Counted from the first letter of the stretch, positions 1-35,166 are shown. The stretch is DNA of 64,000 nt from an uncultured Spirochaetota bacterium (GCA_963835575.1 CAWIGG010000002.1:1824001-1888000); one strand, 5' to 3'. Program-made: numbers and translations. The notes: generated by a model not told the origin, from the letters alone.

Positions 1-353
1 TTCTCCCGGGATTCTTCAGCTAATCCGGTCTTTAACTGAATCTCTTTATGGCCCGGCCTGACATAAAACATGGTTATCGCGATGATGACGCAGAAAGCCA
101 GGGCGGCTGAAGCGGCGCGGAAGGCCCCGCTTCTCCAGAGCGAAAGGAGGAAAAAACGTTTTTTATTTTCTCTTCCGCTGAATTTAGCGAGCAGTTCCCG
201 CTTGAGGTCCTTTTCGAATTTTTTGTTTATCACAACATGCGGTTTAGAGGATAGAAGTTCGCCTATCGCCTTTTTCAAATCCTCCTCCTTATCCCGCAGA
301 CCGGGATCAATGCTGTAAAGTTCTTTTAAAATCATCTGAATTCTCTTTTCCAT
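1..353 (-). CDS. Putative anti-sigma factor, membrane-anchored (3' end runs off the window)
   Basis: Not in the ORF track. Hand-translated from ATG at 353 (GGAG upstream): MEKRIQMILKELYSIDPGLRD...FRAASAALAFCVIIAITMFYVRPG. One TM segment; directly downstream of the ECF sigma gene. Confidence 0.65.
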   Translation of the reverse strand, partial: MEKRIQMILKELYSIDPGLRDKEEDLKKAIGELLSSKPHVVINKKFEKDLKRELLAKFSGRENKKRFFLLSLWRSGAFRAASAALAFCVIIAITMFYVRPGHKEIQLKTGLAEESRE

Positions 354-30386: not shown

Positions 30387-31727
30387 TTATCTTCCTAAAA
30401 ACATATTGAAGATATCATTATAAGTGACAAGGACCGCAAGGATAATGATGCACACAAGCCCGACCATTTCAATAATCATCCTTACCCTTTCCGGCAGCTT
30501 TTTTCTTGTTATGAATTCCATTATGCTCAGGATAGCATGGCCTCCGTCAAAGCCAGGTATCGGCAGAAGGTTAAAAAAGCCCAGTGCCACGCTGATAAGC
30601 GCCATAAACCTCAGGAGTGTGGAGAAATCCGTTTTTGTCGCTATTTCTCCGGTTATCTGGAGAATACGCACCGGCCCGGCTATGCTTTTCTGGATATCAA
30701 TTTTTCCGAAGATAATAACGCCGAGGCTTTTAAGCGTTTCAACAAGAAATGTATTGGCCTGGTCAAAACCGTCTTTAAAAGCCATGAGAAATCCCTGTGA
30801 TCTGGTTGTTTTTGTGAATGTCGGGAAATTATTTGCCGGATTTACACCCAGATATCCCTTCCCCTCAAAGCGTGAGAGAAGGATTTTTTTAGTAAATAAA
30901 TTATTTGTATTTGAGATTGTTACCGTGACAAACTGGTTTGTCTTATTCTCAATATATTTTTCAATTTCATAATAATGAGCGATTTTTTTCCCGTCCAGCG
31001 CTGTAATCTCATCACCGGGCTGAATACCGGCCGCGGATGCCGGCGAATTGGATGTCACTGATCCCACTGTATTATAATAGAAGGGAGTCACGCCGATATA
31101 GTTCATTCCCTTTTCCTTGCTGAAGCGCGGAGCGAATCTGGAATGGTTTGTCGTATTATTCCTTAAAAAGGAAATTTCCATTTCCCTGTCCATGCTTAAG
31201 CCGATAACGCGGGGTATGTCGTTATAGCTTTCGATTTTTGTTCCGCCGAGGGACAGGATCGTATCGCCTGACCGCAGGCCGGATAACTGGGCCGGGGTCG
31301 GTTTTCCACCCGCGTCTTTCTCTAATACGGCCACCTGTGAAGTAATTAGTGTCTCCTTATAACCCGCCAGCAGAACAAAAGCCATAACAATCACGGCAAA
31401 TATATAGTTGAAGACAGGTCCTCCAAGAACTGTCGCCAGTCTTGAGAGAGCCGGCCTGTTGTACATGGCCCTGGCATCATTTACGGCTCCGGTTTCCCTG
31501 TCTTTGGATTCCTCGCCGCGCATCTTGCAGTAGCCCCCGAAGGGAATGATTGCTATGCGGTAATGCGTCTCACCGATGTTAAACCCGATCAGTTCTTTTC
31601 CGAAACCGATGGAAAAAGTGTCCACTCCGATCCCGTTTATCTTTGCCATAATAAAATGACCGAATTCATGCACAAAGACCAATACTCCCAGAACAGGCAG
31701 CGCAATAATAAAATCTAACACATTCAT
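30387..31727 (-). CDS. rseP: RIP metalloprotease RseP (site-2 protease with PDZ domains)
   Basis: HEFGHF, GGYCKM, PDZ motif SPASAAGIQPGD, NLLPIPGFDGG; start at 31727 (GGAGG upstream). Confidence 0.95.
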   Translation of the reverse strand: MNVLDFIIALPVLGVLVFVHEFGHFIMAKINGIGVDTFSIGFGKELIGFNIGETHYRIAIIPFGGYCKMRGEESKDRETGAVNDARAMYNRPALSRLATVLGGPVFNYIFAVIVMAFVLLAGYKETLITSQVAVLEKDAGGKPTPAQLSGLRSGDTILSLGGTKIESYNDIPRVIGLSMDREMEISFLRNNTTNHSRFAPRFSKEKGMNYIGVTPFYYNTVGSVTSNSPASAAGIQPGDEITALDGKKIAHYYEIEKYIENKTNQFVTVTISNTNNLFTKKILLSRFEGKGYLGVNPANNFPTFTKTTRSQGFLMAFKDGFDQANTFLVETLKSLGVIIFGKIDIQKSIAGPVRILQITGEIATKTDFSTLLRFMALISVALGFFNLLPIPGFDGGHAILSIMEFITRKKLPERVRMIIEMVGLVCIIILAVLVTYNDIFNMFLGR

Positions 31728-31909
31728 TAACTGACCTCCAAATCTGAACACATGATTTTATGGTAAAGCTTTATTTTGGTCAAGATAAAGAGCGTGAAGC
31801 AAAAAGCTATACAGGCACCCCTCTCCAATGGTTCCCAAGCGGAGCTTGCAGTGAGCCTGTCGAGCCTGCCGTCTATGATAAAAGTCAAGTGTTTTTTAAA
31901 AATTATTTT

Positions 31910-32995
31910 TTATGCCGCCTTTTTTAATATTCTTTCATATTCATTCATTTTGGTCTTATGATTTTCTTGGTCAATATATCTGTAATATTCTCCATTTTTC
32001 AGCATCCAATATATAGCGACAAGTACCTTTCTTACTAAAGCAACTCTCGCTTTGCCTTTAGTCTTGCCCTTACTCTTCTTTAAATAAAACAAATCCATCT
32101 TCCGGCTTGATTTCCTGAAATGATTTATGGATTCCACCATTAAGGTCATCGTTAAATAACGCGATTGTTTGTTTAGATGACCTATTTTTACTGTATTACC
32201 GGATGCGTCTATACCCGGTGCTGCCCTGAGATATGAACAGAAATGCTTCACGTTTTTGAATCGGTTGATATCAACAACATCTGCCATAATCCCGATTGCC
32301 ATAAAAATGCTTATCCCCATTATACTGACAAGCAGATCTATTTCTTTCTGGAACATCTTACCCGCTATCATTATCTGCTTTTTTGTCTCTTCCATTTTAT
32401 TCTCTAAGAAATTGATTATGCTTAAGAGTGATTCTATTTCCGCTCTGACAGTGTCGCTCATCTTGGCGGAAGTAAGATTTTTCTGCACATTCTGATATGA
32501 TAAGTTTGCTTTTTTAAATCCGAATATCCCGTTTTGTTTCAACAAAGAGCGGATCATATTTTTATTCATATTCTTCTGTCTTTTATATATGTCATATACC
32601 GTGAATAAACTTCTGACCTCCCGAACTTCCTTAGCCGGCATATATACCAGAGGAAACTCAACATCAGATGGATTGAATAAAATATAATACTTCAGTCTGG
32701 CGGCTATCTTTTCCGCGTCAATCTTATCCGTCTTCTTATTCGTTCGGTAGATGGTCGAAAACTTCCAGGTATTAATGATATAACACTCCTTGACAAGGTC
32801 CTTGATCTGGTCAATGAACCAGAAAGCGTTTGTTGTGGATTCCACCGCTACATAATCCTCTTTTGTCACTATTCTCTTGAACTTGCCGAAATACTCCGGC
32901 AATAAAGAGCAGCTCATTCTTTTTGGAACAATCCCTGTGTTATCAAAGCAAGCTGCTTTAAAGTTTTCATCTCCCGGGTCTACTCCGTAAAACAT
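31910..32995 (-). CDS. IS110-family DEDD transposase/recombinase
   Basis: YGVD, VAVES, KTDKID (DEDD); LVSIMGIS; APGIDASG (catalytic-Ser loop); start reassigned to ATG 32995 with GGAGGA SD. Confidence 0.93.
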   Translation of the reverse strand: MFYGVDPGDENFKAACFDNTGIVPKRMSCSLLPEYFGKFKRIVTKEDYVAVESTTNAFWFIDQIKDLVKECYIINTWKFSTIYRTNKKTDKIDAEKIAARLKYYILFNPSDVEFPLVYMPAKEVREVRSLFTVYDIYKRQKNMNKNMIRSLLKQNGIFGFKKANLSYQNVQKNLTSAKMSDTVRAEIESLLSIINFLENKMEETKKQIMIAGKMFQKEIDLLVSIMGISIFMAIGIMADVVDINRFKNVKHFCSYLRAAPGIDASGNTVKIGHLNKQSRYLTMTLMVESINHFRKSSRKMDLFYLKKSKGKTKGKARVALVRKVLVAIYWMLKNGEYYRYIDQENHKTKMNEYERILKKAA

Positions 32996-33049
32996 TTGAC
33001 ATCCTCCAACTATCGTAGTAAAATACCTTTGAGGATCAAAAATTATCCT

Positions 33050-33280
33050 TCGGTTAAATAAAGGATAAACCTTGACGGGCTGAAAGGCAGCCATTCGTCT
33101 ATTCGGGTTCGGGAGATTCCTCAATTTTATCTCCAGTCCCATTTTGTTGGTAAGGAAGAAGGCTGGACTAAACGAAGGATCGGGCTCCTGACAGGATTTC
33201 TATCCTGGCATCATAATGTCCCAGACAGGCTCCCAGCCTTCTTCTGTCTTATTAATACCTCTACAGTATTTCCTAAAGAC
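33050..33280 (-). ncRNA. Candidate IS110 bridge/seek RNA (boundaries approximate)
   Basis: 12-bp stem 33155-33166/33233-33244 encloses GAGCCTGTC and TCCTTCG (target matches); a second loop contains ATAGACG (donor-junction match). Confidence 0.7.
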
Positions 33281-33477
33281 AGATTATACCTTTCTTCCTT
33301 ATCCGTCAAGTCTTTCTATTCCTTTTATCATAACAGCGAAGGGATGGGATGGGAAGGGGTGAGGCCAGTTATTATTTTGATTAAAATTGACAATCAAAAT
33401 CCAAGCTTGTAAAATATCATTCAATAGTGATAAAATAATTTATAATTCCTATTTATTACACATCGATTGGAGGAGAT

Positions 33478-35166
33478 ATGCGCCTTGCAGGCCAGGATAT
33501 ATGGTTGTTTATTCTTATTATATTCTTATCTTTTTCGGCAATCATAGTATTTTTTTATTTATACAAAACAAAAATCATTAACAAAATATTCTCGGAATCT
33601 CAGCGGGAGCTTCTTTTATCCAACCTCAATTTCCGCAGCCGTTTTTTGAAGATTGTCCTGATCATCACGGCTTTGTTTTTCATCTCTTTTTCGCTCCTGG
33701 ATCCCCGCTGGGGTACAAAAAATGTCCAGGCAAGCATCGAAGGCATCGATGTCGTATTTATCATGGACGTTTCCCGGAGCATGCTGACGCCGGATACCGT
33801 TCCCAACAGGCTCGAGGCCTCAAGAAAATTCGCTCTCCAGCTGATGAGCCTGCTTGTGGGAAACCGAATCGGCATAACGGCCTTTGCCGGCTTTGCCTTC
33901 AATGTCATCCCGCTGACGACAGACTTCGACGCGGCGGCGCTTTTTATAAACGAGCTTTCACCTGATATGATCGATATACAGGGTTCAAACTTGGAAGACG
34001 CGCTCAAAAAGGCGCTGGAACTTTTTGAAAAAGAAGCCCTCACTCATAAAGCGATTGTCATCTTTACAGACGGTGAAGACTATGAGTTTTCTCCTCTCAA
34101 AGAGGTAAACAGCATAAAGGAAAAAGGCATTTCCATCTTTACGGTAGGAATCGGTACGCCCGGCGGCGGGCAGATCCCTCTTTATGATGAAAATGGAAAG
34201 TTAACCGATTATCTGAAAAAGGACGGACAGATTGTCATATCCCGGCTGAATGAAGCCCTGCTTACCCGGATTTCCGAAGAAACAAAAGGGGCCTATCTTG
34301 CGGGCAGCGACAATTCGATCATAGAACTTGCCAGGAAACTTGATGAGATTAAAAAAACACAATTCGGCTCCAGCATTTATGATTTTATGGAACCCCAGTT
34401 TCAATATTTTCTCCTGATCGGGATCCTGCTGCTCTTCATATTCCTGTTTCTTCCTGAAAGAAGAATAATTTTCAACCGTTTTACGCTGATATTTTTCATA
34501 CTCTTTTCAAGTATAATTTTCAGCCGGCCTGCTTTCGCATCTGACGCTTCAAAAGGATGCAGAGAGTACCAAAAAGCTAATTATGAGGATGCTCTCAAGC
34601 TTTTTCAAAAATCCATCGTGAAAGACCCGAAAAATGAAAAGCTCCGCTTTAATGAAGGAGATAACTTTTACCAGCTCCAGCAGTTTGACAAAGCCGGCGA
34701 ATCCTTCAGCGCGCTGACAAACTCAAAAAACAAGGAACTCGGAGCCGGGGCTCTCTATAATATGGGTAATTCATACCTGGAAAAACAGGATTATGCCGGA
34801 GCGATCCGGTCTTATAAAAAAATCCTGGAAGATTCCGACGTTTCTTCTGAAATCTACAAGAAAGCCCTTCAGAATTTTGTTTACGCAAAACAGCATCTGA
34901 TGCTGAAAAATCATGACCAAAATCAGTCAAAAGATCAAAATAAGGATAAAAACAAAAAACAAAATGAAAAAGAAAATCCCAAAGATAAATCAAATAAGAA
35001 CAATAATCAGAAAAATAAAGAACAGCAGCAGCAGGTCCGGCAAAAGCCTGTCAGCCCTTCTGAAATAGAAAATCTATTGAATCTCATTGAGGAAGAGGAA
35101 AAAAAGCACCTGAGTGAAAAAGAAAAAACGAAAGGGATCAGGGTTTACCCGAAAAACGAATGGTAG
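33478..35166 (+). CDS. vWA + TPR membrane protein (BatB/BatC-like fusion)
   Basis: DVSRSM MIDAS motif, PLTTD, FTDGED, GIGT; TPRs (ALYNMGNSY); Q/K/N-rich linker. Confidence 0.88.
   Translation: MRLAGQDIWLFILIIFLSFSAIIVFFYLYKTKIINKIFSESQRELLLSNLNFRSRFLKIVLIITALFFISFSLLDPRWGTKNVQASIEGIDVVFIMDVSRSMLTPDTVPNRLEASRKFALQLMSLLVGNRIGITAFAGFAFNVIPLTTDFDAAALFINELSPDMIDIQGSNLEDALKKALELFEKEALTHKAIVIFTDGEDYEFSPLKEVNSIKEKGISIFTVGIGTPGGGQIPLYDENGKLTDYLKKDGQIVISRLNEALLTRISEETKGAYLAGSDNSIIELARKLDEIKKTQFGSSIYDFMEPQFQYFLLIGILLLFIFLFLPERRIIFNRFTLIFFILFSSIIFSRPAFASDASKGCREYQKANYEDALKLFQKSIVKDPKNEKLRFNEGDNFYQLQQFDKAGESFSALTNSKNKELGAGALYNMGNSYLEKQDYAGAIRSYKKILEDSDVSSEIYKKALQNFVYAKQHLMLKNHDQNQSKDQNKDKNKKQNEKENPKDKSNKNNNQKNKEQQQQVRQKPVSPSEIENLLNLIEEEEKKHLSEKEKTKGIRVYPKNEW

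Follow-up and report, generated by a model that had tools for sequence, protein, structure and literature searches.

The 64,000-nt stretch of DNA analyzed here (the window) comes from an uncultured Spirochaetota bacterium (GCA_963835575.1, CAWIGG010000002.1:1824001–1888000) and carries, at positions 31872–33336, an insertion sequence (IS) of the IS110 family, here called W. The element contains a recombinase gene on the minus strand, with a non-coding left end upstream of the gene, and we conclude with high confidence that W is an IS110-family element with a two-module guide RNA whose polarity is reversed relative to that of IS621. The left end (LE) and right end (RE) are named in the sense of the recombinase gene, so that LE starts at 33336 and RE stops at 31872; RE is only 38 bp long past the stop codon, and the gene has the RNA on its upstream side. 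Related elements are labeled by genome (G) or locus (L), with G000 denoting the window's own genome.

The recombinase contains the Pfam domains PF01548 and PF02371, and it scored 163.2 bits against the NCBIfam model NF033542 ("IS110 family RNA-guided transposase"; cut-off, 140), which upholds the IS110-family assignment of an earlier note on this DNA. Residues D7, E53, D91, D94, and S266 (DEDD plus a serine) were invariant in all 12 aligned recombinase sequences. A profile built from 12 sequences matched, in the PDB, ISCro4 (9t56; 4.9e−23) and IS621 (8wt6; 1.7e−21). No solved structure matched it better than ISCro4, whose two matching stretches take in both domains; phmmer with the single W sequence gave no match in the PDB. 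When plasmids were searched with the W recombinase by tblastn, the best matches shared at most 28% identity and were named only "IS110 family." The C-terminal motif reads LRAAPGIDASG. Judged from its sequence, W looks intact, with the open reading frame whole and all catalytic residues kept.

The low-end junction reads, on the plus strand, GAGCCTGC-CG|TCTATGAT (31862–31879), and the high-end junction reads ATAACAG|CG-AAGGGA (33330–33344). The insertion was thus without target duplication, the core dinucleotide being common to both junctions, and the CG core proposed in the earlier note is present at each of them. A paralogue of the flanks at C4:143252–143336 of G000 (75/88 identical, intergenic, with one copy of the core) spans the junction position uninterrupted, which confirms the boundaries; the empty site that had been rebuilt earlier, GAGCCTGCCGAAGGGA, is correct according to both junction readings. 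This paralogue had no family match in Rfam. The subterminal inverted repeats of W are 11 bp long and perfect. A DNA search of the whole 4.39-Mb assembly found W as the sole copy, and tblastn of the assembly with the W protein otherwise found only three paralogues, at about 26% identity. Separately, the host unit of the insertion was seen to be a GC-rich intergenic sequence of about 88 nt (window ~31813–31871 and 33337–33369) with W in its middle; the sequences at the two ends of this unit, GGCACCCCTCTCC and GGAAGGGGTGAGGCC, are complementary to each other, and its one uninterrupted paralogue is that in C4 (also L033 353–437).

The earlier note had read the left end as a bridge RNA and proposed folding it as a check. 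The 341-nt left end folded at −100.8 kcal/mol (z = −3.05), better than every one of 100 shuffles. The perfect 12-bp stem that the note described (GAAGAAGGCTGG at 33155–33166 and CCAGCCTTCTTC at 33233–33244, plus strand) was in place, and an inverted-repeat search returned it as 12 nt with 100% complementarity. This outer stem of the target module was present in all 14 elements compared (W and 13 relatives, described below), with 9–13 pairs of differing sequences and with double changes in 9 of the 10 modeled pairs. Both inner hairpins formed in nearly all homologues; the short target hairpin of G191 was open in the minimum free energy (MFE) fold.

Since MAFFT with RNAalifold recovered only 14 pairs, owing to misalignment of the outer stem, our own 19-pair structure was used for a covariance model, R1. 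R1 gave 45 matches in 44 of 52 loci, the loci without a match being L029, L039, L046, L049, L051, L058, L092, and L094. In the R1 alignment, 89.5% of cells were paired and double-sided changes occurred in 17 of 19 pairs, a result reached by none of 500 shuffles, whereas slid controls had 28–55% of cells paired. Across the window's genome, R1 found W (33069–33248, 97 bits), a match that arises by construction because W is among the seed sequences, and, at 29.9 bits, the RNAs of two elements paralogous to it. The outer-stem folds in 14/14 elements are less biased structural support than the R1 alignment. The note's claim that the non-coding end before the gene holds a guide RNA is supported, and the left end probably encodes a guide RNA of two modules. 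As a side observation, a 3.2-kb metagenome contig (L045) had R1 matches on opposite strands, at 104–261 (+) and 2797–2942 (−), which suggests two elements facing each other.

The guides of the target module were recognized by comparing W with its flanks and with a relative. On the minus strand, GAGCCTGTC (33232–33224) and TCCTTCG (33179–33173), the two strands that the earlier note had assigned to a target-binding loop, are true target guides, since they co-vary with the flanks in homologues. The 5′ target guide matches the RE-side half-site with eight Watson–Crick pairs and one G–U pair over nine positions, with the core G counted, and the 3′ target guide is identical to the LE-side half-site plus core at six of seven positions, the seventh being a U opposite G. 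All 16 positions of the two strands can therefore pair with W's own flanks (14 Watson–Crick and 2 G–U). When the left ends of W and G024 were aligned, the outer stem, UGGGAY, CCCGA, and the whole 3′ part of the donor module were conserved, and two blocks varied: the 9 nt before UGGGA (GAGCCUGUC in W and CUGCUCCCC in G024) and the 7 nt after CCCGA (UCCUUCG in W and AGCUGCG in G024). G024 has three copies, which fix the ends of that element, and its flanks are ..GCTG-CG at LE and CG-GGGGGCA, CG-GGGAGCA, or CG-GGGGGCG at RE; its variable RNA blocks track these flanks. The differences between guide and flank in both W and G024 place U opposite G, as would be expected for RNA–DNA pairing.

The co-variation of guides and flanks was examined in a wider set. 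Another 13 full elements (30–50% protein identity), making 14 with W, came from searches within the order and the phylum and were spread over 12 of 400 other genomes sampled; a protein scan of genome contigs had given one distant locus only, and the relatives were taken from the genome searches instead. All 14 elements have TATGA 4 nt inside LE and TCATAG(A/T) followed by the core at RE, and 13 of them have TTGAC (one has TTTAC) about 13 nt from the RE end. The junctions were set from the offsets of these subterminal repeats, independently of the guides. Each RNA was then compared with its own flanks and with those of the other elements, in 5000 permutations; because G088a has no right flank, n was 13 for right-flank measures. 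The "handshake" bases next to each 3′ guide were also scored (Table 1).

Table 1. Agreement of guide segments with their own junctions in 14 elements
Segment and sequence compared	Cognate score (vs. non-cognate)	Permutations as good
3′ target guide = sense of left flank (5) + core (2)	6.5/7 (91/98) vs. 2.9	0/5000
5′ target guide vs. core G + 8 right-flank bases	6.4/9 Watson–Crick (83/117; 7.2 with G–U) vs. 3.0	0/5000
Target handshake (two bases after 3′ target guide = first two LE bases)	23/28	3/5000
Donor handshake (base after 3′ donor guide = first right-flank base)	11/13, not W	0/5000
5′ donor guide (2 nt before donor hairpin) vs. LE bases 1–4	3.1/4 (44/56) vs. 1.8	0/5000
3′ donor guide = RE + core	6.7/7 vs. 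6.1	Permuted in metagenome set only: 0/5000

An independent set was obtained by a metagenome scan with a closer protein alignment, which gave 56 loci. An RNA hidden Markov model matched 44 of these upstream of the gene; two were dropped because they failed the anchor columns, and the 42 loci kept represent 25 distinct guide pairs, of which 22 have a left junction, 21 a right junction, and one neither. In L038 and L052, the TATGA site was picked among several by its complementarity to the right-end repeat. The 25 guide pairs pointed in the same direction on every measure, with 0/5000 for all seven: 5.05 vs. 2.73 for the 3′ target guide, 6.71 vs. 2.92 for the 5′ target guide, and 3.09 vs. 2.07 for the 5′ donor guide. 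The earlier note had named a lack of co-variation between guides and targets among homologues as evidence against itself, and co-variation was found. The comparison covers 39 distinct guide sets in all, with the cores CG, TG, GG, and AG; the core varies in step between the junctions and both 3′ guides.

These data also bear on the explanation that the left end serves only for protein binding or translational control and that the flank matches are DNA-level features rather than RNA guides. The MFE fold does pair the GGAGGA ribosome-binding site with an upstream AUCCUC, and part of LE may regulate translation. However, the flank-matching segments lie in unpaired strands of a structure with co-varying stems, they change with the flanks in 14 + 25 elements, the mismatches are of the strand-specific U–G type, and solved members of this recombinase family use such RNAs. 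We therefore find this explanation hardly credible. An RNA encoded on the reverse strand was also considered and rejected, because the core-proximal ends of the guides, the U–G mismatches, and the promoters fit the recombinase-sense strand only.

For the donor module, the earlier note had placed ATAGACG (minus strand, 33102–33096) and CAGC (33082–33079) in a second loop; in an IS621-type arrangement, this would be a donor loop closed by the GGCUG/CAGCC hairpin, with ATAGACG as the 5′ guide and CAGC as the 3′ guide. ATAGACG is indeed RE plus core, a sense that in IS621 belongs to the 5′ donor guide, and CAGC is complementary to the core G plus CTG of LE. Nevertheless, IS621 rules applied to these loops predict the orientation opposite to the one observed. 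The second module reads ...AACAAAA-U-GGGAC-hairpin-CCCGA-AUAGACG-AA, and because ATAGACG follows GGGAC-hairpin-CCCGA, just like the 3′ target guide, it is the 3′ strand of this module: a true donor guide, in a loop that had been drawn wrongly. CAGC lies in the stem of the terminal hairpin, and CAGCC is unchanged in G024, whose LE begins with ATGT and not CTGT. The segment that co-varies with LE, and hence the partner of ATAGACG, is AACA(A), at about 33144–33148, upstream of the donor hairpin. This exact donor model is thus largely refuted by the co-variation and is very improbable. In the two-module reading with reversed polarity, which we prefer, the core of the 3′ donor guide follows the junction core (CG, TG, and GG), and the support for this guide comes mainly from that co-varying core, since the guide itself hardly varies.

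The polarity was compared with that of IS621. According to Durrant et al. 2024 (PMC11208160) and Hiraizumi et al. 2024 (PMC11208158), the RNA-encoding left end of IS621 becomes linked to the left target, and the 5′ guides carry the sense of the left flank plus core and of RE plus core. In W, the opposite holds, in that the 3′ guides carry the sense of the LE-side flank plus core and of RE plus core; the guide order is reversed from the IS621-type geometry implied earlier. The reversal affects the two modules alike, which keeps the scheme consistent in itself and yields the orientation observed. The predicted arrangement of W is thus that of IS621, except that the RNA gene is turned around with respect to the element ends; by analogy, the antisense strand of the element would be cut first.

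In the mechanism that we propose, each module would consist of a 5′ guide, a U, GGGAx-hairpin-xCCC, GA, a 7-nt 3′ guide ending in the core, and a 2-nt handshake. In the target module, GAGCCUGUC would pair with the element-sense strand of the RE-side flank and UCCUUCG with the opposite strand of the LE-side flank; in the donor module, AUAGACG would read RE plus core, and AACA would read LE bases 2–5. At each new junction, the handshake bases would read on into the first bases on the far side. If IS621 is a guide, both modules would be held by a recombinase tetramer, which would exchange strands at the core and insert the element in circular form; the RE–LE junction of the circle would rebuild a TTGACT-17-TATGAT promoter. 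The features are listed in Table 2.

Table 2. Features of the element W and its target site (window coordinates)
Feature	Position	Strand	Basis or remark
Insertion sequence, IS110 family, 1465 bp	31872..33336	-	CG at both junctions, uninterrupted paralogue, single copy
Target half-site at RE, GAGCCTGC	31862..31869	+	Read by 5′ target guide
Core dinucleotide CG, RE junction	31870..31871	.	Read from sequence; co-varies in homologues
Subterminal inverted repeat, RE, CTTTTATCATA	31874..31884	-	Inverted-repeat search
TTGACT, −35 half of putative junction promoter	31883..31888	-	Sequence reading; TTGAC in 13/14 homologous REs
Recombinase gene, 362 aa	31910..32998	-	ATG at 32998; GGAGGA 8 nt upstream
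Bridge RNA core, target + donor modules	33069..33248	-	Covariance model R1, 97.3 bits, E = 5e−25
Terminal hairpin GGCUG-CCUUU-CAGCC	33078..33092	-	MFE fold; contains the CAGC of the earlier note
3′ donor guide AUAGACG (RE end + core) + 2-nt handshake AA	33094..33102	-	7/7 match in W
Inner hairpin, donor module (GGGAC...CCC)	33105..33140	-	Helix 4: double changes in 3/3 pairs, 100% paired
5′ donor guide region	33143..33150	-	AACA at 33148–33145 pairs with LE bases 2–5
Outer stem of target module, 3′ strand CCAGCCUUCUUC	33155..33166	-	12-bp perfect inverted repeat
3′ target guide UCCUUCG + 2-nt handshake UU	33171..33179	-	Sense of LE-side flank + core + first LE bases
Inner hairpin, target module (GGGAC...GCCC)	33182..33222	-	Homologue folds; covariance helix 2
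5′ target guide GAGCCUGUC	33224..33232	-	Pairs with element-sense strand of RE-side flank + core G
Outer stem of target module, 5′ strand GAAGAAGGCUGG	33233..33244	-	12-bp perfect inverted repeat
5′ stem-loop (CUGUCUU...AAGACAG)	33244..33282	-	MFE fold
Internal promoter-like TTGACG-15 nt-TATAAT	33283..33309	-	Sequence reading; GGTATAMT conserved in homologues
Leader strand UAAGGAAGAA	33292..33301	-	Can pair with 33151–33160; 10-bp perfect inverted repeat
Subterminal inverted repeat, LE, TATGATAAAAG	33322..33332	-	Inverted-repeat search
TATGAT, −10 half of putative junction promoter	33327..33332	-	Listed as −10 by promoter scan
Core dinucleotide CG, LE junction	33337..33338	.	Read from sequence
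Target half-site at LE, AAGGG (CCCTT in element sense)	33339..33343	+	Read with core by 3′ target guide

Several observations weigh against the reading of W as an element guided by a reversed two-module RNA. The homologues are kin, and the permutation counts overstate their independence. In the independent set, 4 of the 22 left junctions scored 0–2 of 7, and at least the low-scoring rows of L072 and L062 are one-base register shifts as judged by eye. The alignment behind the stem co-variation in 17/19 pairs was fitted to R1's own structure, and an Rfam scan of 31700–33500 with E values up to 10 gave no family match, its three matches (E = 1.8–6.5) being at chance level and all far below gathering. 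The 3′ donor guide is near-invariant, as its cognate and non-cognate scores in Table 1 show. W's own 5′ donor guide matches weakly (3/4 positions), its target handshake matches 1/2 bases, and its donor handshake AA matches 0/2 bases of its own flank. The internal TTGACG-15-TATAAT was not listed by the promoter scan, which required a spacer of 16–18 nt. Finally, W is single-copy, and its genome therefore has no second insertion of it.

The guides appear to specify (U/C)CCTTCG^(A/G)CAGGCTC around the CG core. The 14-mer GAGCCTGCCGAAGG has four further copies in the genome, where 0.02 would be expected. These four sites and the C4 paralogue, which has no exact 14-mer, lie in GC-rich islands, and four of the five are outside any stop-free frame of at least 80 aa. 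The earlier description of the target as a repetitive extragenic palindromic (REP)-like repeat is thus fair in the sense of a short, over-represented, mostly intergenic motif, and it does not extend to a shared palindrome or to a high copy number, the copies being few. L038, whose protein is 53% identical to that of W, has the 5′ guide of W exactly and the 3′ guide CCCUUCG, and its own flanks match 9/9 and 7/7; the guides of L034–L037 aim at near-identical sites. Members of this subfamily in other organisms are therefore directed at the motif that W targets.

The occupied site of W has a G where the U of the 5′ guide and the A of the donor handshake fit A better, and for this reason it looks near-cognate. 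This raises the possibility that the reading of the system is right and that W itself no longer moves: it would be an inactive relic, acquired horizontally and inserted once at a near-cognate site. The genome holds one copy, although four equally good sites are free, and the exact preferred 14-mer variant, with T, does not occur in the genome. On the other hand, the open reading frame is whole with its catalytic residues all kept, the subterminal repeats are perfect, the stems are intact, and a U–G wobble would still pair. We regard the relic explanation as possible but unlikely.

W resembles IS621 as described (PMC11208160, PMC11208158) in having a DEDD-plus-serine recombinase and an RNA upstream of the gene in LE. 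The modules are also alike (an outer stem, a 5′ guide of about 9 nt, a 1–2-nt linker, a stem-loop, a 2-nt linker, a 3′ guide ending on the core, and a 2-nt handshake), as are the core within the pairings, the promoter split between RE and LE, and the repeated intergenic target motif. In contrast, the core is CG in W and CT in IS621, the 3′ target guide is 7 nt in W and 4 nt in IS621, and the proteins are alike at the profile level only (1.7e−21). The same source (PMC11208160) gives subterminal inverted repeats of 2–3 bp for the IS110 group and 7–17 bp for the IS1111 group; the 11-bp repeat of W falls outside the former range and inside the latter. In IS1111 elements, according to Siddiquee et al. 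2024 (PMC11187229), the order of top- and bottom-strand matches is reversed relative to IS110, with the top-strand match 5′. The IS1111 seekRNA elements ISEc11, ISKpn4, and ISPa11 described there share with W a top-strand match 5′ of the bottom-strand match, long subterminal repeats with short terminal extensions, and a circle-junction promoter (predicted in W), but their non-coding region and RNA lie downstream of the gene, whereas those of W lie upstream. Of the IS1111 motif GL-P----S(t)G given in that text, LRAAPGIDASG of W keeps P----SG and not GL-P, the proteins being compared by this motif alone.

A few IS1111 members, such as ISMtsp17, are mentioned in the same paper (PMC11187229) as having an upstream non-coding region, and W is like ISMtsp17, which is only named there, in combining that position with IS1111-type features. 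ISEc21, which has a junction promoter and depends on an upstream RNA both to form circles and to insert, resembles W in the upstream RNA and the predicted junction promoter; unlike in W, its top-strand match sits 3′ of the bottom-strand match. ISCro4 (PDB 9t56) differs from W in being distant in sequence. A full-text literature search found no description of the combination of an upstream RNA, the IS1111 guide order, and long repeats. In a 2026 preprint (bioRxiv 10.64898/2026.10.21.760802), 32,190 bridge RNAs are modeled with 86 covariance models, many of them unlike IS621, and the layout of W may already be catalogued among those models.

Two promoters can be proposed. If RE and LE were joined via one CG, TTGACT would stand 17 nt from TATGAT, as in the split promoters known from this family; in the present arrangement, the promoter scan pairs the TATGAT −10 with a flank hexamer. 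The leader strand lies just upstream of the internal TATAAT and repeats part of the 5′ strand of the outer stem, while its pairing partner, 33151–33160, overlaps the 3′ strand of that stem. The leader pairing was found in all 14 homologous elements, with differing sequences (−20.1 vs. −11.1 kcal/mol for non-cognate combinations; 0/2000 permutations). It would produce a three-way junction surrounding the 5′ stem-loop, or else a different fold. The RNA may accordingly start at a point upstream of the internal promoter, or it may occur in two forms. Two further hairpins were predicted in the segment that separates the RNA from the gene, at window 33003–33070 (−): UAUCCUU...AAGGAUA followed by AUUUUUG, which has the look of a weak terminator, and one that pairs GAUCCUC with the GGAGGAU ribosome-binding site. 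Together, they could limit read-through translation of the recombinase.

W and its relatives (recombinases 27–57% identical; about 13/401 sampled phylum genomes and many metagenomes) might even represent a third layout of the IS110 family, with the RNA upstream, IS1111-like polarity and repeats, the RNA–gene cassette inverted relative to the ends, and a conserved, duplicated leader strand able to take the place of part of the closing stem of the target module. The RNA would then have two alternative folds, the choice between them being set by the promoter in use, that of the circle junction or the internal one. We put this forward only tentatively, as a proposal more doubtful than not. If true, the third layout could represent a stage in evolution between the IS110 and IS1111 groups, or a natural switch that couples the shape of the guide RNA to the circular state.

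Recombinases with bridge or seek RNAs attract interest as programmable tools for inserting DNA without double-strand breaks. W is a compact system of this kind: its protein has 362 aa and the core of its RNA about 180 nt, its target read-out covers 16 positions, and its CG core is palindromic. Its clade displays natural retargeting over the 39 guide sets. The clade also mixes traits used to separate IS110 from IS1111, which bears on the movement of the RNA between element ends; the position of the RNA does not predict the guide order when such elements are annotated or reprogrammed. The RNA-guided mechanism has been known since 2024 and surveyed in tens of thousands of loci, and W is otherwise an ordinary example.

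Other IS110-family elements were met in these searches. A second element of G000 occurs in six near-identical copies (L094–L099; C5:164638, C2:669122, C5:349660, C2:1644864, C2:1052592, and C6:241032), with a 432-aa frame that scored 101.8 bits, below the NF033542 cut-off, and a very short LE. Its RE, about 180 nt past the stop codon, ends in ...TTGACTTAACTAAAACAATCTTCCTGT; the non-coding region is downstream, as in IS1111, and R1 had no match in this element. Four of the six left flanks are identical, so that the true left boundary or the target may itself be a repeat. A third element of G000 (protein ~27% identical to W) is found at C2:474573–475832 (L090), C5:6961–8220 (L091), and C2:1620032–1621018 (L092); two copies are intact and one has an in-frame TAG, the core is AG, and a related upstream RNA was detected (R1, 29.9 bits). 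Its 3′ target guide, CACAGAG, equals the left flank plus core at 7/7 positions in one copy and 6/7 in another, and the reversed polarity thus holds at 27% protein identity.

In metagenomes, a multi-copy relative (29% identity) was represented by 17 loci (L067–L080 and relatives) with an AG core and identical guides. Its right flank, where reached, is mostly GTTAAGCAAATG, and its left flanks vary (..TTGCAG, ..CTCGCAG, and ..ATACAG), a pattern suggesting that the right half-site is long and conserved and that the left one tolerates variation. Most of the close recombinase homologues (proteins P0002–P0084) were on contigs of 1.2–1.9 kb, about the size of the element, as would be expected if the element is multi-copy and breaks assemblies.

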